A stretch of DNA of 64,000 nt from an uncultured Clostridia bacterium (GCA_934749845.1 CAKVHQ010000006.1:6194-70193), one strand, 5' to 3'. Positions 5,004 to 37,070 are shown, counted from the stretch's first letter. Notes: generated by a model from the sequence alone, not told the origin. Numbers and translations are program-made.

Positions 5004-5032
5004 AAAAAAAGGCTAAAGTTTAGCCCTTTTTT
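5004..5032 (-). terminator. rho-independent terminator downstream of RNase P RNA
   Basis: On the minus strand this reads AAAAAAGGGCTAAACTTTAGCCTTTTTTT, a GGCTA/TAGCC stem flanked by A and T runs. Confidence 0.6.
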
Positions 5033-5376
5033 AATGAGTCAGTCTGTAAGCCGAGTTCTGTATTAAACGGTCATCTATCTAGGCATACTGTTCCCAATAT
5101 GCTCGAGCGGTGTATATGGCTTGACGAACAGCCGTTTAGCGCCATTTTTACCTTACATCAGGTGGGGTTTACAATGCCCTGCTTGTCACCAAGCAAGCGG
5201 TGGTCTCTTACACTCGCCATTTCAACCTTGCCATTTGATAAACAAATTCGGCGGTTTGTTTTCTGTTGCACTTTCCTTAAAGTCGCCTTCACTAGCAGTT
5301 AACTAGCACCCTGTTCTGTGATGCTCGGACTTTCCTCGTGGGTTATTACCCCCGCGACCGTCTGGCTAACTCACTA
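5033..5376 (-). ncRNA. rnpB: RNase P RNA (M1-type ribozyme)
   Basis: The minus strand contains the universally conserved CGAGGAAAGTCCGAGC (plus-strand cggactttcctcg at 5325-5337). It also has the 3' conserved ACAGAACTCGGCTTA (plus-strand taagccgagttctgt at 5047-5061). The 5' and 3' ends can pair as P1, the region is a GC-rich island in AT-rich DNA, and the ORFs called here are short and overlapping. The ends are approximate. Confidence 0.85.
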
Positions 5377-5432: not shown

Positions 5433-6137
5433 TTACGACTCAAAAATATTTTTTCCTTTCAAATATCTCTTTATCGTGTTAAGTGCCTTATTCTCCAATC
5501 TTGAAATGTAAGACCTGCTAATGTTAAGCATTTTTGCCACTTCTCGTTGAGTGTAGGCAGGCGTATTATTTAAGCCAAAGCGCAAAGAAATTATTTGATA
5601 TTCACGCTGTGGCAATATCGTTTTAATTAGCCTTTCAACATCGCGAGACAGCATATTATTTTCCACTGACTTTGTTAAGTCATCAACCTCGTTTGGAATT
5701 ATGTCTTGAAGGCAAATTTCGTTTCCATCTTTGTCTTTTCCCAAACTTTCTTCCAAACTGTACACTTGGTTGTGCTTTTTTGTCATTCTAAGGAGCATTA
5801 AAATTTCATTTTCGATACATCGTGCAGCATAAGTTGATAGTTGAGTGTTTTTTCCAAGTTCATATGTATTTATTGCTTTTATTAAACCTATCGTGCCAAC
5901 GCTTATTAAATCGTCCGCCTCCCCTGCAGTTGAGTACTTTTTAACTATATGTGCCACCAAACGCAAGTTGTGTTGAATAAGCCTATCTTTTGCCTTCATG
6001 TCCCCGTTTTTAAAAGCCTTTATGCATTCAGTTTCTTCCTCTTGGCTTAACGGTTTGGGAAACCCAGTTGCGTTATTCACAAAGCCTGTAAAACACATAA
6101 TTTTGCTTAAAAAATTGATAAAACTTTCTATTATCAT
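5433..6137 (-). CDS. sigK: sporulation sigma factor, pro-sigma-K type (234 aa)
   Basis: N-terminal pro-sequence followed by NNATGFPKPLSQEEE and HNLRLVAHIVKKY, close to B. subtilis SigK (NNAFPQPLS...HNLRLVAHIVKKF). Region 2 reads STYAARCIENEILM and region 4 reads QREVAKMLNISRSYISRLE. RBS AAGGAG is present. SigE is the alternative. Confidence 0.8.
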   Translation of the reverse strand: MIIESFINFLSKIMCFTGFVNNATGFPKPLSQEEETECIKAFKNGDMKAKDRLIQHNLRLVAHIVKKYSTAGEADDLISVGTIGLIKAINTYELGKNTQLSTYAARCIENEILMLLRMTKKHNQVYSLEESLGKDKDGNEICLQDIIPNEVDDLTKSVENNMLSRDVERLIKTILPQREYQIISLRFGLNNTPAYTQREVAKMLNISRSYISRLENKALNTIKRYLKGKNIFES

Positions 6138-9228: not shown

Positions 9229-10158
9229 TTAAATAATGTTTTTAACTTTGCTAAATTTATCCTGTTCTTCAAGTTTTTTTGGCATTATTATGTTTTGACC
9301 GTCACAATAATATCTCATTCCCAAACATTCGTAGTAAACAACATTTTTAAATATAATTATGGTTAGTAATGACATCGGCAAAATAATTACCAAAGCAACG
9401 CCAAATGTGAAAAATACTGCAAACATATTTAAAATGAAAAGTAAAACGGAAATAACTAAACTATTGCTGAAAATTGATAGAAATTTTCTGCATATAGCCT
9501 TTGTTCCCTTTTTAATTGCGGTAAACACGCCATAGTTGTTAACTGCCATTGAAACTTCCCAACCAGCAGTTATTGTGATTTTTAAAGCAATCATGAGTAA
9601 AACATACAAAATGCAAATTAAAGGTGCAATAAACGATTTGGATAGAAGGATATAAATTCCCACTGCACCAAAAGCGATAATTAAGTCCCAAATATAAATT
9701 GTAATAAGTTTAACCAAACCATATTTAACAGACTTTCCAAAATTTGCAACATAACAATTCATAAACCCAAGTTTTAAAGTTGTGCTCATAAACGAACGAA
9801 CATCGTCTGTTACTGGCAAAGTGCAAAGTCCGTCAACAAAATAATATAGCGTTACAGAAACTATGCCAACTGCTAAAAATAGAGGCATTAAGTTTGCGTT
9901 TACAATTATTTCATAAAACTTTTTTGCTATTAAAATTAAAATTTCAATCAAATTATTAAAATTAAAATTTAAAAACATTTTACTCAAGTTTTCTTGTAAA
10001 AATCCAAAAAATCCTTGATTTATCAGTGTATTGATTATAGGCAAAGAAACGACGGTTGTCAAGCCCATTATACAAATAAACACAATTATTTTGTACAAAA
10101 GGATTTTCCAAACCGAAGAAAAATTGTTAATTAAAAGTTTAAAAGTGTTTTTAAACAT
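9229..10158 (-). CDS. hypothetical polytopic membrane protein (309 aa)
   Basis: At least 6 hydrophobic helices, RBS AAGGTGA, no recognisable motif. Confidence 0.4.
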   Translation of the reverse strand: MFKNTFKLLINNFSSVWKILLYKIIVFICIMGLTTVVSLPIINTLINQGFFGFLQENLSKMFLNFNFNNLIEILILIAKKFYEIIVNANLMPLFLAVGIVSVTLYYFVDGLCTLPVTDDVRSFMSTTLKLGFMNCYVANFGKSVKYGLVKLITIYIWDLIIAFGAVGIYILLSKSFIAPLICILYVLLMIALKITITAGWEVSMAVNNYGVFTAIKKGTKAICRKFLSIFSNSLVISVLLFILNMFAVFFTFGVALVIILPMSLLTIIIFKNVVYYECLGMRYYCDGQNIIMPKKLEEQDKFSKVKNII

Positions 10159-10180
10159 ATCGTCACCTTATCTTTTGATA

Positions 10181-10996
10181 TCAATAGTTATAATATTTCC
10201 TATTGTCGTATCTGTTTATGTTTGAAAGTTCAAAGTATGAAGTCATGCAAAGCGAAGTGTAATAAATGAATAATAGTAAAACGCCCAAAATGTTTGTGAT
10301 ATATGCAAGGTTGCCCTTAAGTAAGCATGCAAGCGGAATTATAACCACAAAAGGTACAAGCATTGCAAGCAAGTAAGAGAAAGTGTTTTTGTTCATGAGT
10401 TTAATTGAATTTGCTATTGCCTGTTTTGTTGGGTATCCGCTAATAAGCATATTTGGAATGGTTAAAAATATAATTGATGTTATGAACATGAAAATTATAA
10501 ATTTAATCACGCACAAAATTACTGCCAAAACAATATTTAAAACTGTTGGTTGATTTCCTATTCCACTGCAAATTATATGAAGCAAAATAATTAAACCAGA
10601 AAGCAAAAATTGCAAAACAAACCAAATTAGCAAAATGATTGACAAGTTTACAATAACAACAAGGATATTGTTGTTTAGGTATTGGAACATGCTTTTGTAG
10701 TTGAGTTTTCCACTACGCATATGATTTTCCATTTGACCGATTGCAAGACTTACGAAAACTGAAAGTACGGCAATTCCAAGAACAACCAAAATTATTGGCA
10801 AAATTTTAAAATCAATTAAAGAATAAAAAATGTCGCCAAAACTTCTAACCGTTATTTTTGAATAGTTTGTCATAAATTCAAAAGTTTTGAATGGCGAAAG
10901 CAAACCGCCAAAATATGCGGTTGGAACAATCGCTAACAAAAAAATGTATAGAAAATTTTTAAAAATATAACCAAAACTTAATTTAACATATTTCAT
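10181..10996 (-). CDS. hypothetical polytopic membrane protein (271 aa)
   Basis: At least 6 hydrophobic helices. It sits directly upstream of the 9229 gene on the same strand. Confidence 0.4.
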   Translation of the reverse strand: MKYVKLSFGYIFKNFLYIFLLAIVPTAYFGGLLSPFKTFEFMTNYSKITVRSFGDIFYSLIDFKILPIILVVLGIAVLSVFVSLAIGQMENHMRSGKLNYKSMFQYLNNNILVVIVNLSIILLIWFVLQFLLSGLIILLHIICSGIGNQPTVLNIVLAVILCVIKFIIFMFITSIIFLTIPNMLISGYPTKQAIANSIKLMNKNTFSYLLAMLVPFVVIIPLACLLKGNLAYITNILGVLLLFIYYTSLCMTSYFELSNINRYDNRKYYNY

Positions 10997-11122: not shown

Positions 11123-11153
11123 CAAAAAAAGACGGCTTTTTAGCGCCGTCTTT
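11123..11153 (-). terminator. rho-independent terminator closing the phage-like operon
   Basis: Minus strand reads AAAGACGGCGCTAAAAAGCCGTCTTTTTTT (GACGGC/GCCGTC stem plus T-run), 18 nt after the last holin-like gene. Confidence 0.65.
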
Positions 11154-11170
11154 CCCTAGTTTGTCTATGG

Positions 11171-11461
11171 TTATTTTTGGTCTTTATCATCTTGGTTTGT
11201 GTGCTGTTGATTTTCACCTTCATTAGATTGTTCTAAATTTGTTTCATCGTTAGTTTTGTCGTTGACATTTTCTGTTTCATCTGTTTTTTTGTCTTTTTTT
11301 ATTATTCCCAAAGTAACGAAAATACCAAGCACCGCGGTTACAACGCTTGTTATTGCAACTTCGTCCACACTAAACCCGAATGTTGTGCCCAAAGTGTTTA
11401 TTAAAAGAATTATTGCTCCAAGTAAACTGATCCAAAAGGTATAATTTTTAAATTTTTTCAT
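11171..11461 (-). CDS. holin-like membrane peptide (phi-LC3/Phage_holin_1-like), 96 aa
   Basis: KNYTFWISLLGAIILLINTLGTTFGFSVDE...VVTAVLGIFVTLGII gives two TM helices around an FGF turn, followed by a highly charged C-terminal tail. It is the last gene of the late operon. Confidence 0.45.
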   Translation of the reverse strand: MKKFKNYTFWISLLGAIILLINTLGTTFGFSVDEVAITSVVTAVLGIFVTLGIIKKDKKTDETENVNDKTNDETNLEQSNEGENQQHTNQDDKDQK

Positions 11462-11711
11462 TTTTTTCTCCTTCTTGTTTATTTACTAAACTCACATTCT
11501 TTTTCTTGTTTTTATAAACCACTTGTTTAACTTCTTCAACTTCTTTTTTAATCTCGTGAACAACTCCCAAGTGGTCTGTTAAATCTTTGATTGTTTGTTG
11601 ATATTTGTTTTCTCTTTGTTTGCTGTCTTTAAGCACAAATATTAGCAAGCCCAAAAATAATACAGCCCATAGTCCGTTTTTTATTGCCAAGTCAAAAATG
11701 TCTTGCCACAT
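11448..11711 (-). CDS. BhlA/UviB-family holin-like peptide (87 aa)
   Basis: A single N-terminal TM with the family signature (NGLWAVLFLGLLIFVLKDSKQRENKYQQTI, compared with BhlA QGPFAVLFCWLLFYVMKTSKERETKLYNQI), followed by a coiled charged tail. Confidence 0.65.
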   Translation of the reverse strand: MWQDIFDLAIKNGLWAVLFLGLLIFVLKDSKQRENKYQQTIKDLTDHLGVVHEIKKEVEEVKQVVYKNKKKNVSLVNKQEGEKNEKI

Positions 11712-11717
11712 AACAAT

Positions 11718-11972
11718 TTAGGAAAAATTTTTTAAATTTATTAGTTTTTCAATATCATCTTGTTGAGGCTCTTTTTCTTCTTTAACATTTTCTTTTAAGG
11801 CTTCTTCGTTTGAGGAAATAATTTGCTCAAAACTTTTTACTATTTTGTCATGCTCCTCTTTTGTTAATCTTGAATCAAACATAAACAATTCTCCATTTTT
11901 TAAAATTTGTTTTAACCTTTGTCTTTCAAACTCTTTAACATATTGCGAAAAACTTTTAAATTGCATTTCCAC
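11718..11972 (-). CDS. hypothetical protein (84 aa), acidic/coiled
   Basis: Intact ORF overlapping the end of the 505-aa gene by 17 nt. No motif. Confidence 0.35.
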   Translation of the reverse strand: MEMQFKSFSQYVKEFERQRLKQILKNGELFMFDSRLTKEEHDKIVKSFEQIISSNEEALKENVKEEKEPQQDDIEKLINLKNFS

Positions 11973-13473
11973 TTTCCATAAGTTCGATATTCATCATCAA
12001 ATTGGAAATGTAGGCTTTCTCTTCATCGGTTTCAATTTTAAAACCAATTTGCTTTCCGCTTAATCTTACAGGAAACTTATTTAAAAGTTCGCTTCCACAA
12101 ACTTTAAATGACTTACTCTCTTTTTCGGTAAATATAGTCAAAGTGCAGTCGTATTTTGAAATTAAACTTATTTCCTTAACCAATTTCTTTTTGTTGGAAT
12201 AGCCTAAATCCGACAACGGCGAACACCAATATTTGTGAGTAGTTGCATTAAAAAATTTACCAGTTGTGCTAATTTCGCCCAGAACTCCACTATTCACTGT
12301 GTTATAGCAAAAAACCATTTTGTTCAAACTTTCAGATTGTAGCGAGATTAAATCGGCGATGTCTATTCCTCGAGTAATAGTGTAATCGCCTGTTTGAACA
12401 TCTAACAATAGCAAGGTGTTGTTTTTGTATGACGATTGGTTTTCGCAACCAATTTTTTTGTCGTCGCCATAATTAAGCCTGCAGGCTAGTGCATACTTGC
12501 CATTATGGAAACAAGCCTTTGCGTTTTTATTGTCCACATTTTCAAGCAATTTGCCAAATTTTAGGTCTATTTTTTTAGCAGTAACGCCATCAAACTTAAC
12601 AATTCCACCACGAGTTAACATAAACATTTGGTCGCCACAAATTTGTAAAGTGTCGGCATAAATTTTATTGCCGGACATGTACACATTTGATATTGAACGC
12701 ATGTCCTCGTAACAAGTGATTTTTAAAATATTGTAATCTCGAATTACATACATGTGACCTTGAAAGTTTATTAAACGATTGATTTTTCCCTGACCATCGT
12801 TAATTTCAAACGAACCCTCATCGTAGTCGGCGTTAGGTGTGTCAGTCCATTGTGTTAAGTGGTAGTTATTGCTGTAATTTATAAACTTCTGTTCCCCGCC
12901 TGTTATGTAATAAAGTTTGTTTTTGTAGTCACACAAACTAACAATTTTAGGGCAATTTTCAAATCTCATTGGAACGCCATCGCCATTCCAATAGCCTAAA
13001 TTATCAACTCCGCTAGAAACAATAACACTATCCAAATCAACAATTTTTGTGTTAAACATTTTAGGCTGTTTTGTGAATGCCAAGTGCGAAAGTTGAGTTG
13101 TGGTTGGATAAATGCTATTAAGCAAAATATACCAAACATAGCCATCACTTGCATAAAACAAAAGTTTGTCTGTATATTCATTTCTTGCTCTACTATAGTG
13201 TCCAAAATGCCATAGCGATTTTATTTCTTTATCAAAGTCATCATAGTAAATTCCTATTTGATTTTCTTCACTTTCTTTGCTTGTTGGTGTTGTGAAATTT
13301 TTAAAGCCTATTCCTTCTTTTAAAACGCCACTATTAAAATCAAAATTATAGCAAACGATGGCACTATCCATTGAGGTAATATTTTCGCCATAAGTAATGT
13401 CGAACCCACGAGCAAAATCATTGATTTTTAAAACAATTTTTTTGTTGCTATCATCTTTACTTATAATTGCCAT
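11956..13473 (-). CDS. hypothetical phage structural protein (505 aa), beta-rich; candidate tail, nozzle or receptor-binding component
   Basis: Largest unknown ORF downstream of the capsid genes. The ATG at 13473 is preceded by GAAGGTGG and overlaps the upstream stop as TAATG. The sequence is rich in aromatic/Gly beta-strand-like repeats. The function is inferred from position only. Confidence 0.4.
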   Translation of the reverse strand: MAIISKDDSNKKIVLKINDFARGFDITYGENITSMDSAIVCYNFDFNSGVLKEGIGFKNFTTPTSKESEENQIGIYYDDFDKEIKSLWHFGHYSRARNEYTDKLLFYASDGYVWYILLNSIYPTTTQLSHLAFTKQPKMFNTKIVDLDSVIVSSGVDNLGYWNGDGVPMRFENCPKIVSLCDYKNKLYYITGGEQKFINYSNNYHLTQWTDTPNADYDEGSFEINDGQGKINRLINFQGHMYVIRDYNILKITCYEDMRSISNVYMSGNKIYADTLQICGDQMFMLTRGGIVKFDGVTAKKIDLKFGKLLENVDNKNAKACFHNGKYALACRLNYGDDKKIGCENQSSYKNNTLLLLDVQTGDYTITRGIDIADLISLQSESLNKMVFCYNTVNSGVLGEISTTGKFFNATTHKYWCSPLSDLGYSNKKKLVKEISLISKYDCTLTIFTEKESKSFKVCGSELLNKFPVRLSGKQIGFKIETDEEKAYISNLMMNIELMESGNAI

Positions 13474-14099
13474 TATAGCCACCTTCTTGATTTAATTTTT
13501 ATTTCACCAACCTTTTTAAAATTGTTTGATAGTGACTTTTCAAACTTGGTTTGCCAAGCCTCACTTTCATCGGTAATACCCTTAATTAAACAAAACTGAC
13601 TGCATACACCATACGAAAGCGAAAGTATTGTTAAATTTCCGTTATGTGTTTCCAAATTGCTTGTGAAATCAACATCGCTAGGAAGATAGGCATACTTAAT
13701 TTTATATTTGCCATTATTAAGCACAATTTTATCCTTAACAAACGAATACTTAACAGGCTCGTCATTTTGCGTTATTTGTTTAACTTTATAAAGTTTTTGA
13801 GACAAAGTATCAATAGAAATTTCGCCATCTGTCACTTCTATTTCTTCTTCAAATAAAAGTGAATGGAAATCTGTGCAAATTTGCATTTGAGCGATGTTAA
13901 TGCAATCGAGAATTAGTTTCAAATCTTTTTCTGCCTGAATGGTTAAAAATTCGGGCAAATCTGTTTGAGTATCATCATGCAAGTAGCCTAAAAAAGTTGT
14001 TAAAGAAAGATTGTTTGTTTCGCAATATTCTGCGCATTTTTTATCATCACTTTCATTAAGTAATCTTGTAACTAATTTAATAACATCTAAAACTTTCAT
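13473..14099 (-). CDS. hypothetical phage protein (208 aa), candidate head-completion/adaptor protein
   Basis: The ATG at 14099 is preceded by TTAGGAGAATGT. It lies between the capsid genes and the 505-aa ORF. The function is by position only. Confidence 0.35.
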   Translation of the reverse strand: MKVLDVIKLVTRLLNESDDKKCAEYCETNNLSLTTFLGYLHDDTQTDLPEFLTIQAEKDLKLILDCINIAQMQICTDFHSLLFEEEIEVTDGEISIDTLSQKLYKVKQITQNDEPVKYSFVKDKIVLNNGKYKIKYAYLPSDVDFTSNLETHNGNLTILSLSYGVCSQFCLIKGITDESEAWQTKFEKSLSNNFKKVGEIKIKSRRWL

Positions 14100-14107
14100 A
14101 CATTCTC

Positions 14108-14512
14108 CTAAATCCATTTTGTTTTATAACTATCATTAAAATTCACATTTTCACCTGTCTTACTTTCGGCATACTTTAACATATCTTTGGCTTTAAAACT
14201 AGCTTCATCAAGCAAGCGATTTTGCTTTTCTGTTTCAAGTTTTTTATTGTTTTGCTCCATTTCATCCAATAGTTTTTTGTGATTTTCAACACTTGTTTTC
14301 AAAACCAAATCGAGTGTTCTTTTATCTAAATTTGTGTATGGCAAAACAAGTTGCAAAGTGTTTGTTGATGCTTTATGGTGAACTTCAAATTTTTTTGAAT
14401 TTAAGTTATAAACAATAAAATAATTTTTATCAATTTTTTTTAATCTTTTGATTATATTAAAAACATCATGCTTTATAAAAATTTTTCCCATTTCAATTAA
14501 CCAAAATGGCAA
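14108..14512 (-). CDS. hypothetical phage protein (134 aa or 127 aa from the ATG at 14491)
   Basis: Intact ORF directly after the capsid gene. The C-terminal half is a charged coiled coil. No motif. Confidence 0.35.
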   Translation of the reverse strand: MPFWLIEMGKIFIKHDVFNIIKRLKKIDKNYFIVYNLNSKKFEVHHKASTNTLQLVLPYTNLDKRTLDLVLKTSVENHKKLLDEMEQNNKKLETEKQNRLLDEASFKAKDMLKYAESKTGENVNFNDSYKTKWI

Positions 14513-14545
14513 GAAACTAAATTCCTTGCCATTTGATTACTCCTT

Positions 14546-15004
14546 TTAATTATTATCCGCCGTTGTTAAAGCAGAAACAATACCTGAAATTTTTGCTTGT
14601 CCTGCTGGTTTTGAACAAATTAAGTCGGCATATTTAACTAGGGTTGCTGAATATGTAGCATATCCTGCGTTTTGTTTAAGAACTTTGCCGTCCTCGCCTT
14701 CTAACCATTGCCAATCGCAAAGTTGATGAAGAGCAAATTCTTTAGTGTTAAGTAAAAACATAGTGCCGTTATCAATAAATCTATCTGCTACAACTGGAAT
14801 ACCACTGTAACTCATTGCCTTGTATCCACCTTGCAAGTCCATGATGTCGATGTTTCTTTTGTTTGTTGCAAGATAGTTTTGATACAATCTCTTAACATCA
14901 TAAGAGCATGCAATAAAGTCAACTGTACTTCCAACATTTTCGTCAAGAGTGTCGATTGCTTCTTGGATAACTGCGTCTGTTATCAATTTTTCTGTTCTGT
15001 CCAT
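14546..15004 (-). CDS. HK97-fold major capsid protein, C-terminal fragment (152 aa)
   Basis: GGYKAMSYSGIPVVADRFIDNGTMFLLNTKEFALHQLCDWQWLEGEDGKVLKQ...YSATLVKYADLICSKPAGQ matches my recollection of the C-terminal A-domain of Firmicutes-phage HK97-family capsid proteins. It is in the same reading frame as 15005..15733. Confidence 0.7.
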   Translation of the reverse strand: MDRTEKLITDAVIQEAIDTLDENVGSTVDFIACSYDVKRLYQNYLATNKRNIDIMDLQGGYKAMSYSGIPVVADRFIDNGTMFLLNTKEFALHQLCDWQWLEGEDGKVLKQNAGYATYSATLVKYADLICSKPAGQAKISGIVSALTTADNN

Positions 15005-15733
15005 TTATTTAACCATCCATGCATTTGCACTTCTGTCAACACCATAAAGTGTGCCAGTTGAAGCAAAAATTTTGCCAAGACCTGTTAATTCGTTGTCTTT
15101 TGAGCCTTGTACTGTGAAATAGCAGTTTGCAACGATAGAACTTGTTAAAGTTTTGTTAATTTTGATTGTTTTGTTTGCTCTATCAACAGCAATAACTCTA
15201 ACGCCTGCAAAACCTTCTACAACTGCATTTGCTGATGTGTAAGCATCAACAACCATGCCTTCGATAAAGTTTTTAACGCTATCCATTGTGATAACTTGAC
15301 CAGAAACACTTTTAATTGTTCCAAGTTTTCCAGAACCGTCACCATATAACATTCTTCCAAAGTTGAATGTGCTTGCCTTGATTAAGCCTTCCATTTCGGC
15401 ATTAAGCAAATTAACGAATGCGCCAACAGAGTGTTCGCTTGCTCTAACTGCTTTGTCTGTTAATTCAATTTTTCCGTACAAGTTTTTAAGTTCTGTTACA
15501 AATTTAACGTAACTGTTTCCTGCACTTTGTGGAAGTGCGCCATCTTCTGTACCTGCTCCAATACCGCCATTGATACCAAATGGTGCTAGTTTTACAATTT
15601 CTTTGCCATAAACATCTGCTGATGTTTGTTGAATTTTTGTGAGTAAAGGATTAACTTTGTCGTTTAATTGATTTGATACAACATCAAGATATATTTTCTT
15701 GAGTGCGTTGTCTGCACTTGATAATGTAACCAT
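15005..15733 (-). CDS. HK97-fold major capsid protein, N-terminal fragment (242 aa)
   Basis: Follows the scaffold gene and has a strong RBS (TAAGGAGAAAAATT-ATG). Its sequence (ELKNLYGKIELTDKAVRAS...NLLNAEMEGL...FGRMLYGDGSG) fits the N-arm, E-loop and P-domain part of such capsids. It ends at TAA 15007-15005. Confidence 0.7.
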   Translation of the reverse strand: MVTLSSADNALKKIYLDVVSNQLNDKVNPLLTKIQQTSADVYGKEIVKLAPFGINGGIGAGTEDGALPQSAGNSYVKFVTELKNLYGKIELTDKAVRASEHSVGAFVNLLNAEMEGLIKASTFNFGRMLYGDGSGKLGTIKSVSGQVITMDSVKNFIEGMVVDAYTSANAVVEGFAGVRVIAVDRANKTIKINKTLTSSIVANCYFTVQGSKDNELTGLGKIFASTGTLYGVDRSANAWMVK

Positions 15734-15744
15734 AATTTTTCTCC

Positions 15745-16395
15745 TTATTTATTATTCAAAAGTGCCACCATGTAGTCTCCCGCTTCCTTTATTGAAGATG
15801 GTTTGTTTTTTGGAGTGACCATAACATTGCCACCGCCATAATTGCTCATAAGTGGCACGCCTTTATTAGACACAATTTTAGATAAATAGTCACCTATTAT
15901 CTTTTCTTTAATGACTGGGTTAGTTAATATGTAGCCATCTATAAAATTTTGGTCGTTTGCTAACTCGTCATTAGTTTTAAATTTGCTTGCTTTAACTTTT
16001 TCGTAGGCAAGTTCAAGGGAGTTGTCGCTTGAGGCTAAAACTTTGTCGCTTGAAATTACTTTTGAAATGTCGTCGGCAAACTGTTTGGCAGTTGGGTTAA
16101 GTTCAAAAAAATTTTGAACTTTTTCCATCCAGCCATCTTGCATGTATTGTGGTGCGGAAGGTTTTTCTTCTGCATTGTCACCCACACGCTGTTTCAAATC
16201 TTTTAGTGCTTGACATTTTTTTGTAAATTCTTTTTCCAAATTTACATAGGCCTTTTCAAGTTCGCTAAAATTTTTGAATTTTGTAATTGAGGAGCCGTTA
16301 TCTCCAATTTGTTGAGCCATTTCTTCTTGCGTAAGTGCTGTCTCCTTGCTCTCAGTTTGGTTTAGTGGTTGTTCCTCGTTTATAATTTCTTCCAT
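15745..16395 (-). CDS. phage scaffolding protein (216 aa)
   Basis: Sits between portal and capsid. It has an acidic N-terminus and a helical KFKNFSELEKAYVNLEKEFTKKCQALKDLK segment typical of scaffold proteins. Confidence 0.55.
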   Translation of the reverse strand: MEEIINEEQPLNQTESKETALTQEEMAQQIGDNGSSITKFKNFSELEKAYVNLEKEFTKKCQALKDLKQRVGDNAEEKPSAPQYMQDGWMEKVQNFFELNPTAKQFADDISKVISSDKVLASSDNSLELAYEKVKASKFKTNDELANDQNFIDGYILTNPVIKEKIIGDYLSKIVSNKGVPLMSNYGGGNVMVTPKNKPSSIKEAGDYMVALLNNK

Positions 16396-16396
16396 A

Positions 16397-18271
16397 TTAT
16401 TCTCCTTGTTTCATCAATTTTTTGTGCTCATTTATATGTTCTAGAAAAATTTGTTTAATCTTTTCGTTATTTTTGAATTTTTCATATTCGCCACCAAGCA
16501 TAAATGCGATATGTTCATCCAAATGCAATTTATGGTCGTCTATAGTTAAAACTTCTTCTTTGCTTCCACCTAGCATAGCAAGATTTTCTTTGCCTGCTTT
16601 TCTCATGTGAAGTTCGGAAATATCATTTTGTGCTTCCCAAATTCCATAGCCAAGCATTTCAAGAGTTTTGCTTCTAACTCTGTTGGAAATTTTTCCGTTT
16701 TCATCGCTTAAAAGTCCTGCTTCTAACAATTTAAAAATCATATTTCTCTTTTGAGCCAAGGTGTCGCCTATTTCGTTAGCGGTTTCAAGTACAACATCGT
16801 CCGAACCAATATCACTGTTGTTAAAGTAGAACATCTCCACGCTTCCATCTTGACCGATTATCTTGCAAATTCGGCTTACTGAAGCGAACTGTTTGTATAG
16901 TTTCAAAATGTATTTGCCTATAAGTTTAGTTGCGGTTTTAATTTCATCGGCGGAGCAACTTAATCTATTGTTTTCTTGTTCAATTAAAATTTCAAGGGCT
17001 GTTCCTGACATATTATTTTTAATTAAACTTGAAGTGAGCATTGTTTCGGTTATTCCACTAATTTGAGTAAATTCGTTAATTAGTTTTTCTTCTTCGGTGT
17101 CAAATTCGGTTGGCATAGAGCCTTGGTCCATTATTTCTGGTTTGTTTGAACCTTGCCTATAAACAAGCACTTTGCCCGGGCTCATACCTTCTTCTTCCAA
17201 GTTGTCGGTGTCGATGCTTCCATCTTCAACTGTTAAAATGCCCATTGCCATGCGGTTTAAATATTCGTGCTTACGATTTTTAACCGCGTTATATGCTCGT
17301 TGAACAGGAATTAGCCTTTCAATTACGCTAACACCCCAAAAACTGTTTGGCTCGGCAATACATACTTGTTTAATAAATGGGAATCCTCGTTTGCTATCGT
17401 CTAAATTAACAAATGGGAGTTCTCCTAAATACAAAAGTTTGTCGCCTGCAATAATGGTTAATCTTCCGTTTGGCGCATCGCTTGTTGGTGCTTCATATTT
17501 TTCAATAACTAATGCGCTGTTTTCGGCTTTATGTCCAATAACTTTGTTGATTTGTGATGAATAGCCCAGTCCGCCAAGCGATGAAGAATTTGAATTAAGT
17601 GTGATGACATCAAGTTCTTCTGGCTCAACATCAACACCCCAAATGGTTTTAATTGTTCTAACATCATAGGTCTTTGCATGAATAATACTCATGCAATCTT
17701 CCACTTTTTCGCAAGAGTTATTGTCTGGGAAAATTTCGTAAGGTGGGCAAACTGTAATTTCAACATCGCCTTGCTTTATGCTTTTGCCATTTTCATCTTG
17801 ACCAACACAAAGCCCATGATTATAGTTCCAAGTAACTTTATAAAAACTTGTTCCGCAAATTTCGCTCCAATTTGTTGCTTGCGAAATTAAGTTGCTAACA
17901 TCTAATTTATAGTAAATGGAATTTAAAATGTTTTTGCTTACCTTTGCGGTGTTTAAATCGCTTTCACTATTGGTTGCTGGAACAACACTCATTTTTGGTC
18001 TTACTGTGGATAGTCTGCATTTTCGTGCTTCAATAATTGGTGCGATGTGGTTATAAACTTCTCTTTCTTGCCAAAAAAATTGTTTGTGAAAATCTTCAAC
18101 TTCGCCAAGACTTGTTATACCACAGTATTGATTTCCGTTTAAAAAATTCATGTTAAGTTGCCATTGTCTTTCATAAGATTTTCGCTTTTGCTGGCGTTTT
18201 AAAAAATCTTCTTTAACTGCTTTTACAATATCTTCTGCAAAGGTTAAATCTTGCTTTGTTTTTTTACTCAT
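16397..18271 (-). CDS. phage portal protein (624 aa)
   Basis: In the canonical position between the terminase and scaffold genes, with the size of a large (podovirus/P22-class) portal. It has a conserved-looking core (FWGVSVIERLIPVQRAYNAVKNRKHEYLNRMAMGIL). Confidence 0.65.
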   Translation of the reverse strand: MSKKTKQDLTFAEDIVKAVKEDFLKRQQKRKSYERQWQLNMNFLNGNQYCGITSLGEVEDFHKQFFWQEREVYNHIAPIIEARKCRLSTVRPKMSVVPATNSESDLNTAKVSKNILNSIYYKLDVSNLISQATNWSEICGTSFYKVTWNYNHGLCVGQDENGKSIKQGDVEITVCPPYEIFPDNNSCEKVEDCMSIIHAKTYDVRTIKTIWGVDVEPEELDVITLNSNSSSLGGLGYSSQINKVIGHKAENSALVIEKYEAPTSDAPNGRLTIIAGDKLLYLGELPFVNLDDSKRGFPFIKQVCIAEPNSFWGVSVIERLIPVQRAYNAVKNRKHEYLNRMAMGILTVEDGSIDTDNLEEEGMSPGKVLVYRQGSNKPEIMDQGSMPTEFDTEEEKLINEFTQISGITETMLTSSLIKNNMSGTALEILIEQENNRLSCSADEIKTATKLIGKYILKLYKQFASVSRICKIIGQDGSVEMFYFNNSDIGSDDVVLETANEIGDTLAQKRNMIFKLLEAGLLSDENGKISNRVRSKTLEMLGYGIWEAQNDISELHMRKAGKENLAMLGGSKEEVLTIDDHKLHLDEHIAFMLGGEYEKFKNNEKIKQIFLEHINEHKKLMKQGE

Positions 18272-18494
18272 ACTTACCTTCCTTTAATTTTTTTACAATT
18301 ACATTTTGTGGACTTTTTGGTGTTACAAATTTTCCAATATTTTTATACATTTTGTTTAAACAATCTTTGCACAAACAAAATTTTCTTTTAAAAATATTTT
18401 TGTATGTAACGCACACAGTTGCGATGTTTTTACAGTTGTCTTGACAACATTTTTTAATGTGCTTAACTTTTTCAATTTCAATTATCATTTTCAT
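18264..18494 (-). CDS. small Cys-rich (zinc-binding?) phage protein (76 aa or 74 aa)
   Basis: Eight cysteines (CCQDNC...C...CLCKDC). It overlaps the portal start by 8 nt. Confidence 0.35.
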   Translation of the reverse strand: MKMIIEIEKVKHIKKCCQDNCKNIATVCVTYKNIFKRKFCLCKDCLNKMYKNIGKFVTPKSPQNVIVKKLKEGKYE

Positions 18495-18837
18495 TCTCCT
18501 TTAACCTAGAAATGATTTCGTTTATTTTTTCGTCTAATTCTTCATTAGACATTTTTGAAATATCATCATCAAAATTGGAACTTTCAAATTCCAACAAAAC
18601 TTTGGCAGCAGATATATCTGGCGGAACATTTTTTATCGTCACTTTTTTCTTAACAAGTCGTTCGTTTTCATTTTCATCTAACGAATACTCTTCGATAACT
18701 TCGTTGGTTTTATAGCCTAAAGCGCGTTGCTTTAAAGCATTTAAAATTTCTTCACTTGAACTTAAATTTTCACTTTTTTGCACAATTTTTTGAGTTTTTT
18801 TGCGTTTTTTAATGATTTTTTCATCCATACATACCAT
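18478..18837 (-). CDS. terminase small-subunit-like protein (119 aa)
   Basis: ALKQRALGYKTNEVIEEY...VKKKVTIKNVPPDISAAKVLLE resembles the (A/G)FGY...K..PPD..A motif I recall from Firmicutes-phage small terminases. It overlaps the TerL stop, and it lies downstream of TerL rather than upstream. Confidence 0.4.
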   Translation of the reverse strand: MVCMDEKIIKKRKKTQKIVQKSENLSSSEEILNALKQRALGYKTNEVIEEYSLDENENERLVKKKVTIKNVPPDISAAKVLLEFESSNFDDDISKMSNEELDEKINEIISRLKENENDN

Positions 18838-20263
18838 TTTTCTCCCTTTTCAAGTTGTTGATTAGTTTAAGTTTATACTTTTGAGAATCTGTTAAAATTG
18901 GCTTATCTAGTTCTTGTGGAACAATAGACATAATGTAGTATCGAAGTTCGTCCATGGCATGATCGTTTCGCTTAACAGGAGATTCATCACTGCCCCATGA
19001 ATACGATTTTATTTCTCGAATCATGTTCACGCAGTTTTTAAAAATAAACAATTTTCGGTTTCCGTTTGCGTCACAAATATACTTTCTAACCATTTGAAGA
19101 CCAACCAAACTTTTGTTAACTTTTGTGTTTACTAGAATTTTATTTTCGTAAAATTTTTGAGCAACCGAGTCTTGACAGGCTAAAGTTTTTTGAAGCGATG
19201 CACTGTCGATTATTGCTTTTAAATATCCTTTACTATCTCTTTGCCAACCTAACTTGTCAGCCACTGCATGAATGTTTGATGAATGCTCTTCTATTGGTTG
19301 CTCTTTTGCATAAACTTCGGCAATCACATAAATGTTGTCATCAAAATCTCTTGCGTAAAAGTGACAAGAAAGTGGATTTGTAAAACCAGGGTCGATTGAA
19401 ATGTTATCGTACCATTCTTTTGGAACATCAAAAGGTTCAATAACATTCAAGTTTTCATCAAAGTTTGGATATACTAATCCGTTTGAACTTGTAAATTTAC
19501 CATCGCACCTAGATTCAATTTCCTTTTCACTCATCTGCGACTTTAATTTTAAAATTTCGTCTTGGTTTAAAAATGGATTGTCCTGCCAAGAAATGTTTTC
19601 ATACCAAATGTCGTCATCATTTCTTTCGTTTAGGTACACCTCATTATATACCCATGTTAACCCCTTAAGTGGAGTCATAGTGCCAAAAATTTCTCCGCAC
19701 TTATCAATAACACGCATTTTACATTCCATGTAAATATCTTCTGGTGGCTCTTCATCAAACCAAACATAATCAAGCGATGTTCCTTGAAATTTTTCTCTGC
19801 CTTGGTCCACGCTTTTAAAACCAATAGTGCTAATCTTGCCCGAAACATTGCGAACTAAAATTTTGTCTATTATGCCGTACTCCATGCTTTCTTTTTTGCC
19901 ACTTTGCATAACAACATCAACAATCCAATCTTTGTTTAGATAGTATAAAATTTTTTGTTGAGCGACATCTCGTTGCACTTGCGTTGAAAGCGAAACAACC
20001 CAACCGTTTGTTTGCTCTTTGTTTTGTTTATAGGGGTGATTTCCCCTTGCAAGCCAAACTGTTTCCACCGCGCCACATTCCGTTTTGCCTGTTCGGTTTC
20101 CACCAAAAACCCAGCGATTTTTTTTGGTGCATTTATGAAATAAGATTTGTTTTTTATGAACCAATTCGCCTTGATTGTACCTAGACAAAGTATCTCCCCT
20201 TTGCCTACGCTGTTTTTCCAAACAAAGTTTATTAAGCATTTCAGTTAGTTTTTGTTTTCTCAT
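18821..20263 (-). CDS. phage terminase large subunit (480 aa)
   Basis: Walker A reads GGNRTGKTECGA and Walker B reads LDYVWFDEEP. The C-terminal nuclease-like half has acidic motifs (IDPGF...; NDHAMDELRY). RBS AAAGGTAG is present. Confidence 0.85.
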   Translation of the reverse strand: MRKQKLTEMLNKLCLEKQRRQRGDTLSRYNQGELVHKKQILFHKCTKKNRWVFGGNRTGKTECGAVETVWLARGNHPYKQNKEQTNGWVVSLSTQVQRDVAQQKILYYLNKDWIVDVVMQSGKKESMEYGIIDKILVRNVSGKISTIGFKSVDQGREKFQGTSLDYVWFDEEPPEDIYMECKMRVIDKCGEIFGTMTPLKGLTWVYNEVYLNERNDDDIWYENISWQDNPFLNQDEILKLKSQMSEKEIESRCDGKFTSSNGLVYPNFDENLNVIEPFDVPKEWYDNISIDPGFTNPLSCHFYARDFDDNIYVIAEVYAKEQPIEEHSSNIHAVADKLGWQRDSKGYLKAIIDSASLQKTLACQDSVAQKFYENKILVNTKVNKSLVGLQMVRKYICDANGNRKLFIFKNCVNMIREIKSYSWGSDESPVKRNDHAMDELRYYIMSIVPQELDKPILTDSQKYKLKLINNLKREKNGMYG

Positions 20264-20325
20264 ACATCTACCTTTGTTTATTTTTTATAATTAAGTTAAT
20301 AATAAAAACATATACTAATTTGGAA

Positions 20326-21081
20326 ATGAAAAGATTTTTAATAATAATTGCTTGTTTTTTATTTATTTTTGTTTCAATTTTTGTTATTCGGTCAACTATG
20401 ACTCAAGAAGTGGGTGCAAACCAAACCAGTGGCTACGCCATGGTAAAAGACAATAACTCTTATTTTTACCGTTACACCTTGGAAAACCCAGCCGTAAATA
20501 ACAAATACTTTTTGCTGGAAAAATCATACTTCGTTAAAATAATCGAAAATTCAAACGAAAATTTTTACAAAGCGGAATATAACGGTCTTAAAGGATATGT
20601 AAAAAAAACAGATGTGGAATTTGTTGAAGAAATACCAGAAAATCCGTTTTTAAGTGAAATTACATTTGATATTTACTCGGCAAGCAGTGTTGAATTGAGA
20701 ACCGAACCTAGCACCGAGAATGGAATTGGAAGCATAATAACCACATTGCCAAGTGGATATAAAAATTTGAATTATTATGGAAAATTAACGGGAGAAGAAA
20801 GCATAAAAGGACTGGGAAATATATGGCTTTACTGCTCATTTACAACTCCAGAAAACAAACAAGTTTTTGGTTATGTTTACTCTCCACTAACTGTAAATTT
20901 AAGTCCAATAAATGAAAACGGCGAAAATTTAACGCCAGTTTCCGTAACCGATTATGTCCCTATAAATTCGCTACTTTACCTTTCTTTGTCCACAAAAAAT
21001 TTAATTATAATTGCAATAACAATTCCCGCTTTATACATTGCCTATTTGTTTGTTAAACCAACAAAAATTTTAAAAGAGTAA
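20326..21081 (+). CDS. membrane-anchored protein with two SH3b-like domains
   Basis: N-terminal TM or signal sequence. Two bacterial SH3-like segments are present (GYAMVKDNNSYFY...YKAEYNGLKGYVKKTDVEFV and VELRTEPSTENG...VFGYVYSPL), followed by a C-terminal TM helix. No catalytic domain was seen. Confidence 0.5.
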   Translation: MKRFLIIIACFLFIFVSIFVIRSTMTQEVGANQTSGYAMVKDNNSYFYRYTLENPAVNNKYFLLEKSYFVKIIENSNENFYKAEYNGLKGYVKKTDVEFVEEIPENPFLSEITFDIYSASSVELRTEPSTENGIGSIITTLPSGYKNLNYYGKLTGEESIKGLGNIWLYCSFTTPENKQVFGYVYSPLTVNLSPINENGENLTPVSVTDYVPINSLLYLSLSTKNLIIIAITIPALYIAYLFVKPTKILKE

Positions 21082-21109
21082 TAAAAAACACGGATAAATT
21101 CGTGTTTTT

Positions 21110-21640
21110 TTATGCCTTACATTTATTTAAAGAATTTGTGTAACTAGAATTAAACTCAAATTCTTCATCGGTGCAAATGTTAGACTCTTTTTGTTTTGCA
21201 AAGTGGTTATAATATTCTTTAATCCAACTTTCTTTAAACAAAAGTTGTTCAAGTTTTTCGCTTGTATAACCAAAATTTTTTAATCGAATTGCAAATTCTT
21301 CCACTGCCCTATCAATTTTTCTAAAAAATGTCCTTCTTGACATTTCAAGCAATTTAAAGCACATTTCTGGCTTTACATGATCGAAATATTTCATAACCAA
21401 AATTCTTGCACTTTTTGTATCTATTGAAGCAATTACATTTTCAATAATCACTTTTAAATTTATCATCATTTTTTTTCTTTGAATTAAACTAATTATCTTT
21501 TCAGCGTTTTCCATTGTTGATAAATGATTACAACAAGAATTAACACCTTGTGAAATAACCAACTTGTCTATTGCGTCAGAAATTGGTTCTAGACAATTAT
21601 AAGTTGAAAGTAAGGTTTTTGCCCATATTTTTTGTTTCAT
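21110..21640 (-). CDS. hypothetical regulator with a sigma-70 region-4-like HTH (176 aa)
   Basis: ARILVMKYFDHVKPEMCFKLLEMSRRTFFRKIDRAVEEFAIRL resembles the region-4 HTH of ECF/ArpU/RinA-like factors. The ATG at 21640 is preceded by AAGGAG. Confidence 0.4.
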   Translation of the reverse strand: MKQKIWAKTLLSTYNCLEPISDAIDKLVISQGVNSCCNHLSTMENAEKIISLIQRKKMMINLKVIIENVIASIDTKSARILVMKYFDHVKPEMCFKLLEMSRRTFFRKIDRAVEEFAIRLKNFGYTSEKLEQLLFKESWIKEYYNHFAKQKESNICTDEEFEFNSSYTNSLNKCKA

Positions 21641-21865
21641 TTTAAAATCTCCTTTTGCTCGCACTTATTATAAAAACCAAGTTTGCACCATGTCAAAGTT
21701 TTGTGACAAAATTTTTGTAAAAAACTTATATTATTACATTATTTTACAAAAACTTGCTTATCATGTCGAACAACTGTTCTAATAATAGCACACTTAATAT
21801 GACACTATGACTGTCAAGTTTGCTAAATTTTTTAGAACAAATGCTTTAAAAATGAAAAAACACCC

Positions 21866-21896: not shown

Positions 21897-22595
21897 TTAA
21901 TTAGTCCCAGTGTAATTAGTGGTATCCATCGTCTGTTGCGCCGAAATTAAATTGAATGGTGCTTCAGCTAATTTTTCCAAAGAAGAAAATTTGTTTAACT
22001 TGATAATTGAAATTTCATAAGCGGTTCTTTTTTGAATGTCGCCATTATCAAGTTTTTTCTCGTAGCCACGACTTTGAATTCTTCCTAGAATAGAAACCTT
22101 TTCTCCCACCTCTAAATTTTTTGCGAACCTAGCATTCCTTCCCCATGCGATACATGGAAGATAATCGCTTTTGTTGTATGCCCTGTTAACAGCCACCAAA
22201 ACATCGCAAATTTCACGCTTAAATGGCGTTGTTCTATAAATAGGTTCTTTGCATATAAATCCCACAAGTTCAATGGTGTTGGTGTTACTTTCCACCTTGG
22301 CTTCGGTTAACTCCCTAACAAAAACCGTCAACACAAGTTTACTTTTGCCATCCACTTGTTTATTATAACTTCTAAATTGTCCGTTTATTGCTATTGTCTT
22401 TCCAAGAGCAAAATCATTTTCACTTAATAATTTTTCCGAAATTGTTATTGGAATAATATCCACACTTTCGGATAGTCTTGGAACTTCCAAGTCGATTTCG
22501 TAAAAATTTTCATCATAAACTTGATGTGAAAGTCTTGGAAGGGTTAGTATTCTTCCTTCTAAATGCACTTTATTGTTGTTCATTTGTTCAAACAT
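21897..22595 (-). CDS. tandem OB-fold, SSB-like protein (232 aa)
   Basis: Two SSB-like repeats are present (VHLEGRILTLPRLSHQ...INGQFRSYNK...LVLTVFV and IELVGFICKEPIYRTT...CIAWGRNARFAKNLEVGEKVSILGRIQSRGYEKK...AYEISI). It has a strong RBS. Confidence 0.5.
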   Translation of the reverse strand: MFEQMNNNKVHLEGRILTLPRLSHQVYDENFYEIDLEVPRLSESVDIIPITISEKLLSENDFALGKTIAINGQFRSYNKQVDGKSKLVLTVFVRELTEAKVESNTNTIELVGFICKEPIYRTTPFKREICDVLVAVNRAYNKSDYLPCIAWGRNARFAKNLEVGEKVSILGRIQSRGYEKKLDNGDIQKRTAYEISIIKLNKFSSLEKLAEAPFNLISAQQTMDTTNYTGTN

Positions 22596-36197: not shown

Positions 36198-37070
36198 TTA
36201 TCTGCAATATTTTACATTTATATTTTTCTTGCTAAAAATTAAAAATAATATTATACACAAAATTATAGGAATTGAGAGAGAATTTATTACAATACCTGTT
36301 GATGCAACATTTTGATAGTCTATAGAATATATAGTTGTTCCATAAGGAAGCATCTCATCATTGGAATAATTGTTTCCACCTGTTTTTTTAAATTTTGCTG
36401 CATTTAAACCTGTTTTACTAAAAGTTTGACTACCATTTTCGGGTAATATAATCATTTTTAAATTATCACAGCCATAAAAGTTAAGACTTCCTAATCCTCG
36501 CAAATCTAATTTCTCTAATGTATTGCAATTAGAAATATCACAAACAGGCTTAGTATCAGCCCTAAAACTATAACTATCGCTGTTAAATTTAAAACCAGAA
36601 AAATCAATTTGAGTTAACAGATTACAATTGTAAATTCTCACTGTAACCCCAACTGAAATCTTTTTGCCAATCGCAAAAGATAAATTCCACAAATCAAGAC
36701 CAGTTATGTTAGGCATATCTTCCAATTCAATAATGCTTGTTTTAGAACTGTTAGGAAAGCCATCGATTGTTTTTCCAAAAACCAGATCACCAGATAAGTT
36801 TTTATCAACAAGACTATATCTCCAACTTATTAAACCACCACTTTTATTTTCAAATTCTATTTCACTCCATTGTTTAATTAACTCTGTTGTTCCACTCTTA
36901 TACAATCCAGGGGTTGCACGCCTATACTCAATTTGTTCATTTGTTAGTGTTGTGCTTGCTGTAATTTTTGTTTTCTTTAAATTAGGAAATATAACTATTG
37001 CTATGGCTAACGTTAAAACAGAGATAACTAAAGCAACTAGTTTTGTTAACGAAAATTTTGTTTTTACCAT
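36198..37070 (-). CDS. membrane-anchored leucine-rich-repeat (BspA/LRR_5-like) protein
   Basis: N- and C-terminal TM helices. Central repeats resemble NCNLLTQIDFSGF, CNTLEKLDLRGLG and CDNLKMIILPEN. Confidence 0.4.
   Translation of the reverse strand: MVKTKFSLTKLVALVISVLTLAIAIVIFPNLKKTKITASTTLTNEQIEYRRATPGLYKSGTTELIKQWSEIEFENKSGGLISWRYSLVDKNLSGDLVFGKTIDGFPNSSKTSIIELEDMPNITGLDLWNLSFAIGKKISVGVTVRIYNCNLLTQIDFSGFKFNSDSYSFRADTKPVCDISNCNTLEKLDLRGLGSLNFYGCDNLKMIILPENGSQTFSKTGLNAAKFKKTGGNNYSNDEMLPYGTTIYSIDYQNVASTGIVINSLSIPIILCIILFLIFSKKNINVKYCR

Follow-up and report, generated by a model that had tools for sequence, protein, structure and literature searches.

How does a phage head and packaging operon come to stand among the housekeeping genes of a bacterium, and what is it kept for? 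The question is raised by a stretch of 64,000 nucleotides from an uncultured Clostridia bacterium (GCA_934749845.1 CAKVHQ010000006.1:6194-70193), called the window here, with coordinates counted from its first letter. Positions 11171-20263 of its minus strand hold 13 tightly packed, co-directional open reading frames (ORFs), which represent 12 genes, the gene for the major capsid protein (MCP) being in two pieces ( Table 1 ). The head, neck and packaging gene set measures 10.5 kb, and the 13 ORFs run from the large terminase gene TerL (20263) to a terminator. A first-pass annotation had described this run and its tight coupling, and the ORF layout agrees, including the overlaps, the small gaps and the TAATG at 13473. 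We find that the element is maintained and domesticated, neither decaying nor mobile. It is rather probable that it derives from a podovirus, is fixed in the chromosome and passed on vertically, and has been kept by the host lineage as a particle-making operon, most likely one resembling a gene transfer agent (GTA). A GTA-like particle was among the options listed at first pass, and it is the best reading of this domesticated element.

The same annotation had called the operon tail-less, or capsid-only, and had left three probable virion proteins (134, 208 and 505 aa) unassigned. The first statement is wrong, and two of the three proteins could be placed by their fold. Modeled with AlphaFold2 and compared by Foldseek, the 208 aa product is predicted to be a podovirus head-to-tail adaptor and the 505 aa product a tail nozzle; the 134 aa product has no match in Pfam, PHROGs or the PDB sequences, profile search included. 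The 208 aa model (pLDDT 96.7, built from 81 homologues) has as its top PDB matches the tail- or neck-complex chains of KHP30, Pa223, LME-1, SU10, A4, crAss001 and GP4 (E 4e-6 to 6e-4), and weak labeled matches to the T7 gp11 “tail adaptor” and the KP32 tail tubular protein A (E ~0.1-0.25). Its identity came from this fold comparison, a profile search of the family against PDB sequences having returned nothing; the family comprises 639 clusters at 50% identity. For the 505 aa model (pLDDT 88.4, pTM 0.87, built from 41 homologues), the top 27 PDB matches all fall on phage complexes (tail, portal-tail or virion), short-tailed phages supplying nearly every one of them (Pa223, VP1, SU10, P22, GP4, Pan3, T7, Kp9 and PhiM1; E 8e-19 to ~1e-7), and one of them is labeled as the T7 tail nozzle protein gp12. 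Because of these two fold assignments, the operon would encode a minimal podovirus neck and nozzle in addition to the head. The very short-tailed particle that the first-pass annotation had entertained is thus matched by the two predicted identities, and neither protein turned out to be a siphovirus or myovirus tail part. Relatives of the 134 aa protein were detected by tblastn in element loci (25-54% identity) and in three phage contigs (34-39% in L133, L134 and L138; comparison sequences are cited by their L numbers), and the phage relatives carry it in the same place, directly after the capsid gene.

Among the packaging genes, TerL retains intact Walker A (GGNRTGKT) and Walker B (VWFDEE) motifs in its translation and is 52-69% identical across the genome loci compared. 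The neighboring gene, detected in 46 of 47 fully flanked loci, encodes a 119 aa candidate for the small terminase (TerS), which covers just positions 197-243 of the 319 in the TerS profile phrog_309 and whose family profile found no match among PDB sequences. The 76 aa cysteine-rich gene that follows was detected in about 60% of related loci, and its product has no family match in Pfam or PHROGs. Nor does the 216 aa protein encoded between portal and capsid, which is kept in nearly all loci at 25-50% identity and whose position points to a scaffolding role. Pfam confirmed both of the holin-like peptides noticed at first pass (BhlA and Phage_holin_1); the BhlA holin is retained in 22 of 24 and in 23 of 23 loci with full flanks.

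The single ORF reported as not intact is the MCP, which in the window falls into pieces of 242 and 152 aa separated by one in-frame TAA at 15005-15007. A contig of the same species from a gut metagenome, L001, matches the window at all but four of 21,875 bp; the four are C-to-A changes in this gene (G-to-T on the plus strand) and fall within 15 nt (window 14996-15010). Where L001 reads GTT CCA TAC ATG GAC AGC, the window reads GTT AAA TAA ATG GAC AGA. Since these four changes are the sole differences between the two sequences, the break seems to be an artefact of sequencing or assembly, or a private local lesion, rather than a property of the element. All other gene-called loci have an intact MCP (called at 392-460 aa) apart from L002, where a run of N in the scaffold mimics a break. 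Recoding of the stop and programmed read-through were ruled out as explanations, the stop sitting among four clustered changes that L001 does not have. In L152, the MCP (12649-14028) is 460 aa long and carries a Flg_new (Ig-like) domain, which suggests a built-in decoration domain.

The element is widely distributed. Homologues of the portal number more than 5,600; those ranked in the top 120 are 55-100% identical and in many cases lie on contigs of 100-900 kb; portal clusters number more than 5,000. A pattern scan over one genome per GTDB species found a portal relative in at least 558 species-representative genomes. All 80 loci that were fetched come from metagenome-assembled genomes (MAGs) of uncultured Clostridia, Christensenella-like bacteria or Candidatus Caccovivens, and a portal identical to that of the window occurs in the same context in several gut metagenomes. 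Gene-by-gene tblastn recovered the block 119 aa-(76 aa)-portal-scaffold-MCP-134 aa-adaptor-nozzle-holins in essentially all loci. The operon also occupies the same site in many relatives, which keep the flanks of the window: gyrA/pda/SSB, the ArpU-like gene, the SH3 gene and TerL on one side, a gene for a 309 aa membrane protein and RNase J on the other (for example L025, L029, L038, L045, L086, L156 and L157, with portal identities of 50-86%). A homologous operon, gene for gene, is found at a different locus in L152, which represents an abundant gut species (GC 49%); identities to the window are 58% for TerL, 46% for the portal, 54-57% for the MCP, 24% for the adaptor and 25% for the nozzle. 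L102 is a candidate relative of high GC content (0.55). The genes are intact in related species wherever they were called, the sole apparent break being that in L002, and the relatives carry the same reduced operon rather than a full prophage.

Several lines of evidence bear on how the element is inherited. Within the species, L001 and L002 differ at synonymous sites about as much in the element (pS 0.060) as in the host flanks (0.065), and pN/pS in the element is 0.048, a value that speaks against relaxed selection. All of the 25 differences in TerL and the 18 in the portal are synonymous. In comparisons with two related species, in which dS is saturated, every gene has a dN/dS of 0.03-0.3, and TerL, portal and MCP have the same dN (0.07-0.10) as dnaG and rnj. 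A Mantel test over 16 species with shared flanks gave correlations with host-flank distances of r = 0.93 for the portal and 0.91 for TerL (p <= 0.0005), against 0.86 for a host-versus-host control (rnj versus pda); in the same species, TerL is on average less diverged than RNase J. In the portal tree, the portals of the element form one clade relative to phage contigs. The Mantel, dN and pN/pS results together argue for vertical inheritance under housekeeping-level constraint. The view taken at first pass, that the operon has a maintained function and is not a decaying prophage, is upheld by conservation, synteny, purifying selection and co-divergence with the host alike.

The surroundings are chromosomal, as had been reported, and remain so across the 64 kb window. 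Outside the element it holds housekeeping genes: argS, RNase P RNA, a sigma factor, RNase J, pda, a paralogue of single-stranded DNA-binding protein (SSB), trmK, sigA, dnaG, gyrA/B, murG, ddl, tsaE, groEL, the signal recognition particle (SRP) RNA, lepA and dnaJ. The window contains no integrase, repressor, replication or lysogeny genes, no tape measure, tail tube or sheath genes, and no tRNA genes; no att-like flanking repeats were found, and the base composition of the element is that of its flanks, with no compositional break. Just 56 bp from TerL, as read from the sequence, lies a divergent gene for a membrane protein with an SH3_3 domain, which the first-pass annotation took for host-like. 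This is not borne out. In 21 of 24 loci, tblastn finds the gene at the same place and in the same orientation (29-47% identity). It and the ArpU/RinA-like gene beyond it are considered part of the element because both accompany TerL in 21 of 24 species loci with complete flanks. Its product has hydrophobic N- and C-terminal stretches resembling membrane anchors, and a role in lysis or at the cell wall is a guess. The product of the ArpU/RinA-like gene matched the NCBIfam RinA and ArpU families, both below their cut-offs. The site directly upstream of it may serve as a sigma-70 promoter, judging by its match to the consensus. The terminator that closes the operon was seen by direct reading and is not listed by the automatic scan.

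In some lineages the element has come apart. Among 67 species loci informative for the position of TerL, with 4-10 kb of upstream sequence at hand, TerL lies upstream of the head block in 43, and in 14 of these 3-8.6 kb of other genes intervene. In the other 24, the TerL, ArpU-like and SH3 genes all fall outside the available upstream sequence. These 24 loci make up two clades of the portal tree, and the loci of intermediate spacing lie within or next to them. The head genes are conserved in all loci, including those in which TerL is distant. The separation resembles a progressive scattering of the genes over several loci, an organization known from GTAs. A 476 aa gene found upstream of the head block where TerL is lacking was considered as a hidden terminase and found no support. 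In some species the genes inserted between TerL and the head block are large, encoding proteins of 750-830 aa (L033 5881-8379, L062 2788-9258 and L076 1451-3778). Of three such proteins tested, two have weak Pfam matches to M26_N/Flg_new_2 or Glug and one has none; they could be host surface proteins or the missing fiber or receptor-binding proteins.

The first-pass annotation knew of no described podovirus-like GTA in Clostridia, a statement now out of date. FpGTA, from Faecalibacterium prausnitzii, is encoded in operons I and II (PMC12946183; bioRxiv 2024, Nat Commun 2026). Operon I, of ~10 kb, encodes a TerS without a DNA-binding domain, TerL, portal, an unknown protein, capsid, a small unknown protein, adaptor, nozzle and more, and operon II, 125 kb away, encodes fibers, a holin and an endolysin (PMC12946183). 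The particles are 40 nm in size, have no visible tails and contain 8.4-8.9 kb of random host DNA (PMC12946183). FpGTA is the sole experimentally supported podovirus-like GTA-like element, and it comes from one genus. The operon in the window shares its gene order (TerL, portal, X, capsid, small protein, adaptor, nozzle; annotations RCH50852 to RCH50846), its length of ~10 kb, its place in the chromosome of gut Clostridia, a short TerS candidate without a DNA-binding domain and the lack of replication and integration genes; FpGTA is also near-ubiquitous in its host genus. The two differ in host order, Faecalibacterium on the one hand and uncultured Clostridia MAGs, several of them labeled Christensenella or Christensenellales, on the other. 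The FpGTA capsid is named “N4-gp56 family”, whereas six capsids tested from element loci match only capsid_maj_Podo (NF033394). FpGTA has a “Prp” gene between portal and capsid, whereas the element has no Prp-like gene and no scaffold-position protein resembling Prp. Holins are encoded in the main operon here and in operon II of FpGTA, and FpGTA particles have been observed, whereas the present element is known from its genes. No Faecalibacterium-named protein was present among the top 120 hits of either of two portal searches. The differing annotation names of capsid and Prp suggest a lineage distinct from that of FpGTA. An abundant FpGTA particle protein, RCH50844 (annotated “TolA”), is encoded in the same operon a few genes beyond the nozzle.

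Our verdict is that the element is probably an undescribed and very widespread member of the podovirus-like GTA kind. Like a GTA, it is a structural and packaging cluster without replication, integration or excision genes of its own, and it is vertically inherited under purifying selection. It shares with the RcGTA-type systems of Alphaproteobacteria (Rhodobacter, Caulobacter and Bartonella) the character of a domesticated, vertically inherited head and packaging cluster under purifying selection. Those systems are further marked by a multi-locus organization, a TerS without a DNA-binding domain and lysis-dependent release (PMC12946183), traits in which the element would resemble them. RcGTA-type particles differ in being siphovirus-like, with tail tube, tape measure and fibers built from unrelated protein families, and their regulation by host CtrA, GafA or GafYZ is known, whereas here an ArpU/RinA-like activator is the only one seen. 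The folds of portal, capsid, adaptor and nozzle, and the gene order, resemble those of SU10, P22, T7, Pa223, VP1 and KHP30. Uncultured podovirus contigs (L132-L134 and L138) are related to the element in portal (41-42%), capsid (39-46%) and the 134 aa protein (34-45%), while the closest cultured phages, Arthrobacter phages Jasmine and Adat, Microbacterium phage Shocker and Cellulosimicrobium phage DS1, are 21-29% identical. In contrast to the element, short-tailed phages have genomes of 35-65 kb; L133 has tail-fiber-like genes after the gene in the nozzle position, and L138 has an internal virion protein gene downstream of the head genes. Of a complete P22/SU10-like prophage, the element has only the portal, scaffold-position protein, capsid, adaptor, nozzle and holins.

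A working model can be drawn from the gene content. The operon is presumably expressed, and by analogy its products may form particles that package random host DNA and transfer it to recipients. The ArpU/RinA-like activator, behind its consensus sigma-70 promoter, would turn on the operon. Portal, scaffold-position protein and HK97-fold MCP would then assemble a procapsid, to be filled with DNA by a headful mechanism through TerL and the short TerS-like protein, which has no recognizable DNA-binding domain. The adaptor and nozzle would seal the portal and make a minimal stub tail, and the two holins, with an unlinked or unrecognized muralytic enzyme, would release the particles by lysis. Fibers or receptor-binding proteins and an endolysin, if any, would be encoded elsewhere, which would match the second operon of FpGTA 125 kb away.

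Several points weigh against this interpretation. Neither the operon nor the 64 kb window yielded a gene for a fiber or spike, receptor-binding protein, ejection protein or endolysin. Outside the operon, the window likewise lacks a second operon with fibers and an endolysin, holding housekeeping genes only. Delivery of DNA to recipients is doubtful, because no fiber, receptor-binding or ejection protein was found in the window. The 119 aa protein is a weak TerS candidate (E ~1e-4), and the annotation names suggest that kinship with FpGTA is not close. Taken at face value, the stop codon in the window assembly means that this strain could make no particles. Expression, particles and packaging are predicted from gene content, for the element as for its species. 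The cluster that a head would have to hold is 9.1-10.5 kb long here and, in some clades, scattered across more than 10 kb; T number and packaging capacity are not legible from its sequence.

The alternative that fares best, which we consider unlikely, is a domesticated particle with a function other than transfer: a device for lysis-coupled release of DNA (extracellular DNA), a decoy or defense particle, or a weapon that damages competitors in the manner of PBSX, for which capsid, terminase and stub tail would have been retained. The evidence of conservation and selection fits such a particle equally well, no fiber, receptor-binding or ejection proteins were found, and the authors of FpGTA leave open whether their own particles deliver DNA (PMC12946183). 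Against it, conservation is highest in TerL, the portal and the TerS-like protein, a pattern that speaks for DNA packaging as the activity under selection; nothing in a stub-tailed, podovirus-like particle is an obvious means of killing, and the fiber genes could sit at another locus, as in FpGTA operon II. PBSX of Bacillus subtilis is comparable in being a defective phage-like element in a Firmicute chromosome, in packaging random host DNA (~13 kb) and in leaving the cell by lysis, but it is a killer particle with a long contractile tail and unrelated structural proteins. The window has no contractile or long tail genes (sheath, tube, tape measure, baseplate) of the kind that PBSX-like elements or tailocins carry, and TerL gives only a sub-threshold match to the model of the PBSX-family terminase.

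That the operon is a capsid-forming satellite, which would build its own small capsids and steal the tails or fibers of a helper phage to spread, was another option raised at first pass. The evidence contradicts it, and we regard it as very unlikely. Like the capsid-forming phage-inducible chromosomal islands (cf-PICIs), the element is small (~9-10.5 kb), has its own terminase, portal, capsid and connectors and lacks a complete tail with fibers, and 64 related contigs are listed as viral in IMG/VR. The cf-PICIs, however, have an integrase, regulation and replication modules, att sites and horizontal movement, none of which the element has: there is no integrase, excisionase, primase or other replication gene, repressor or att repeat, and the ArpU/RinA-like late activator is the only regulator in the window. 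The position and neighbors are fixed down to 50% portal identity, and divergence tracks that of host genes (r = 0.93). The predicted nozzle and adaptor complete a short podovirus tail and include no connector for docking a siphovirus or myovirus tail, and a mobile element would not survive the gradual drift of TerL away from the head genes. Vertical descent and the lack of integrase, replication genes and att sites together exclude a mobile satellite. Some 60 of the IMG/VR contigs (L088-L147) are fragments of the chromosomal element, and several include gyrA, pda, SSB or RNase J. Because contigs called viral carry these host flanks, virus-calling tools are seen to misfile a host locus.

An inert podovirus prophage remnant that is as yet undecayed by chance is effectively refuted by selection and synteny. 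The stop codon in the MCP and the many missing phage functions would fit a remnant, but the stop comprises four clustered changes absent from an otherwise identical assembly, the genes are intact in related species where called (the exception, L002, being a run of N), and a pN/pS of 0.048 goes with housekeeping-level divergence across hundreds of species. That the operon is the structural arm of a full prophage, the remainder lost by misassembly or lying just outside the region, would account for the incomplete gene set and nothing else, and is barely credible given the same compact arrangement and housekeeping borders in independent contigs of 170-900 kb from different samples and species, in a window that otherwise holds housekeeping genes.

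A wider form of the GTA-like interpretation is held more tentatively. It is possible that a single ancient domestication of a podovirus at the level of the order, independent of that behind FpGTA, gave rise to a multi-locus GTA of hundreds of reduced-genome, uncultured gut Clostridia, and that this is the cluster behind the 4-7 kb packaging of HGM11616 and QANA01 and possibly that of other Clostridia MAGs. GTA-like packaging has been reported in MAGs assigned to Christensenellaceae, HGM11616 (4-7 kb) and QANA01 (6.3 kb), with no gene cluster reported (PMC12946183). It has also been reported in other Clostridia, again without gene clusters (PMC12946183). A 2026 preprint lists CAG-917 contigs among the bacterial DNA enriched with virus-like particles in mouse gut.

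The family is far broader than the one genus of FpGTA, and the constraint on its core genes equals that on RNase J or DnaG. Should the element prove to be a GTA, it would form a major and previously unannotated route of gene flow among uncultured gut anaerobes. It would also supply a sequence marker for GTA producers in metagenomes, and, with TerL drifting away from the head genes, a stepwise view of how a phage operon becomes a dispersed set of host genes. The filing of chromosomal loci as viral contigs, as with the 64 relatives in IMG/VR, inflates virome counts.

Table 1. Features of the element, in window coordinates, listed from the putative promoter to the terminator.
Feature	Position	Strand	Evidence or remarks
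Sigma-70-type promoter-like site	21667..21696	-	TTGACA, 18 nt spacer, TATAAT; 12/12 matches; directly upstream of ArpU/RinA-like gene
ArpU/RinA-like (DUF1492), putative late-gene transcriptional activator	21110..21664	-	Pfam DUF1492; phrog_36, phrog_248 transcriptional regulators
Divergent membrane protein, SH3_3 domain	20320..21081	+	Pfam SH3_3 just under cut-off
Large terminase TerL, 480 aa	18821..20263	-	Terminase_6N 5e-15; phrog_2 7e-33
Candidate small terminase, 119 aa	18478..18837	-	phrog_309 E 1.5e-4; L152 orthologue 1.5e-5
76 aa Cys-rich protein, possibly zinc ribbon	18264..18494	-	Translation; overlaps both neighbors
Portal, P22/SU10 type, 624 aa	16397..18271	-	Pfam P22_portal 6e-27, SU10_portal; phrog_156 9e-44
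216 aa protein, scaffold position	15745..16395	-	Lies between portal and MCP, as in P22-like phages
HK97-fold MCP, podovirus type	14546..15733	-	NCBIfam NF033394 capsid_maj_Podo 254 bits (intact L001 copy, 395 aa); phrog_14242
134 aa virion-module protein	14108..14512	-	Directly after MCP; tblastn conservation
Predicted head-to-tail adaptor, podovirus gp11/gp4 class, 208 aa	13473..14099	-	AlphaFold2 + Foldseek
Predicted tail nozzle/hub, beta-propeller, T7 gp12/P22 gp10 class, 505 aa	11956..13473	-	AlphaFold2 + Foldseek
84 aa acidic protein	11718..11972	-	Translation; position after nozzle
BhlA-family holin	11448..11711	-	Pfam Holin_BhlA 5e-17
Phage_holin_1 family holin	11171..11461	-	Pfam 4e-6; phrog_297 9e-12
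Intrinsic terminator, operon end	11123..11153 (hairpin ~11125-11152)	-	GACGGC, loop, GCCGTC, T7; read directly from sequence

The small gene after the nozzle varies in its context. Many species have a DUF7934 protein of 300-340 aa in this place (L033 16304-17191, L084 16406-17392 and L152 16468-17493). The 84 aa acidic protein of the window was considered as a remnant of it and rejected, since it has no similarity to the DUF7934 protein of L033; it also has no similarity to the 155 aa protein of L086.

At the other end, the SSB-like gene at 21897-22595 was examined as a possible part of the element and set aside, since it remains beside pda and gyrA and is missing from loci in which the element lies at another site. 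Its 232 aa product has an N-terminal extension before an oligonucleotide/oligosaccharide-binding (OB)-fold SSB domain (NCBIfam PRK05813, 295 bits). It also matches the phage family phrog_26861 and was judged to be a host SSB paralogue. Between the holins and RNase J, positions 9229-10996 encode two adjacent polytopic membrane proteins (271 and 309 aa) without a Pfam or PHROG match, the larger of which is 27-33% identical in species that keep the RNase J flank. These may be either host genes or accessory genes of the element.

Farther out, the window holds two ordinary housekeeping RNAs, a class A RNase P RNA (5031-5373, minus strand, 269 bits) and a large SRP RNA (48376-48639, plus strand, 160 bits). 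A sigma-70-family factor of 234 aa with regions 2 and 4 is encoded at 5433-6137, 5 kb downstream of the element, and three ORFs of 265-290 aa without a Pfam match (36198-37070, 41324-42145 and 42602-43399) lie among the housekeeping genes.

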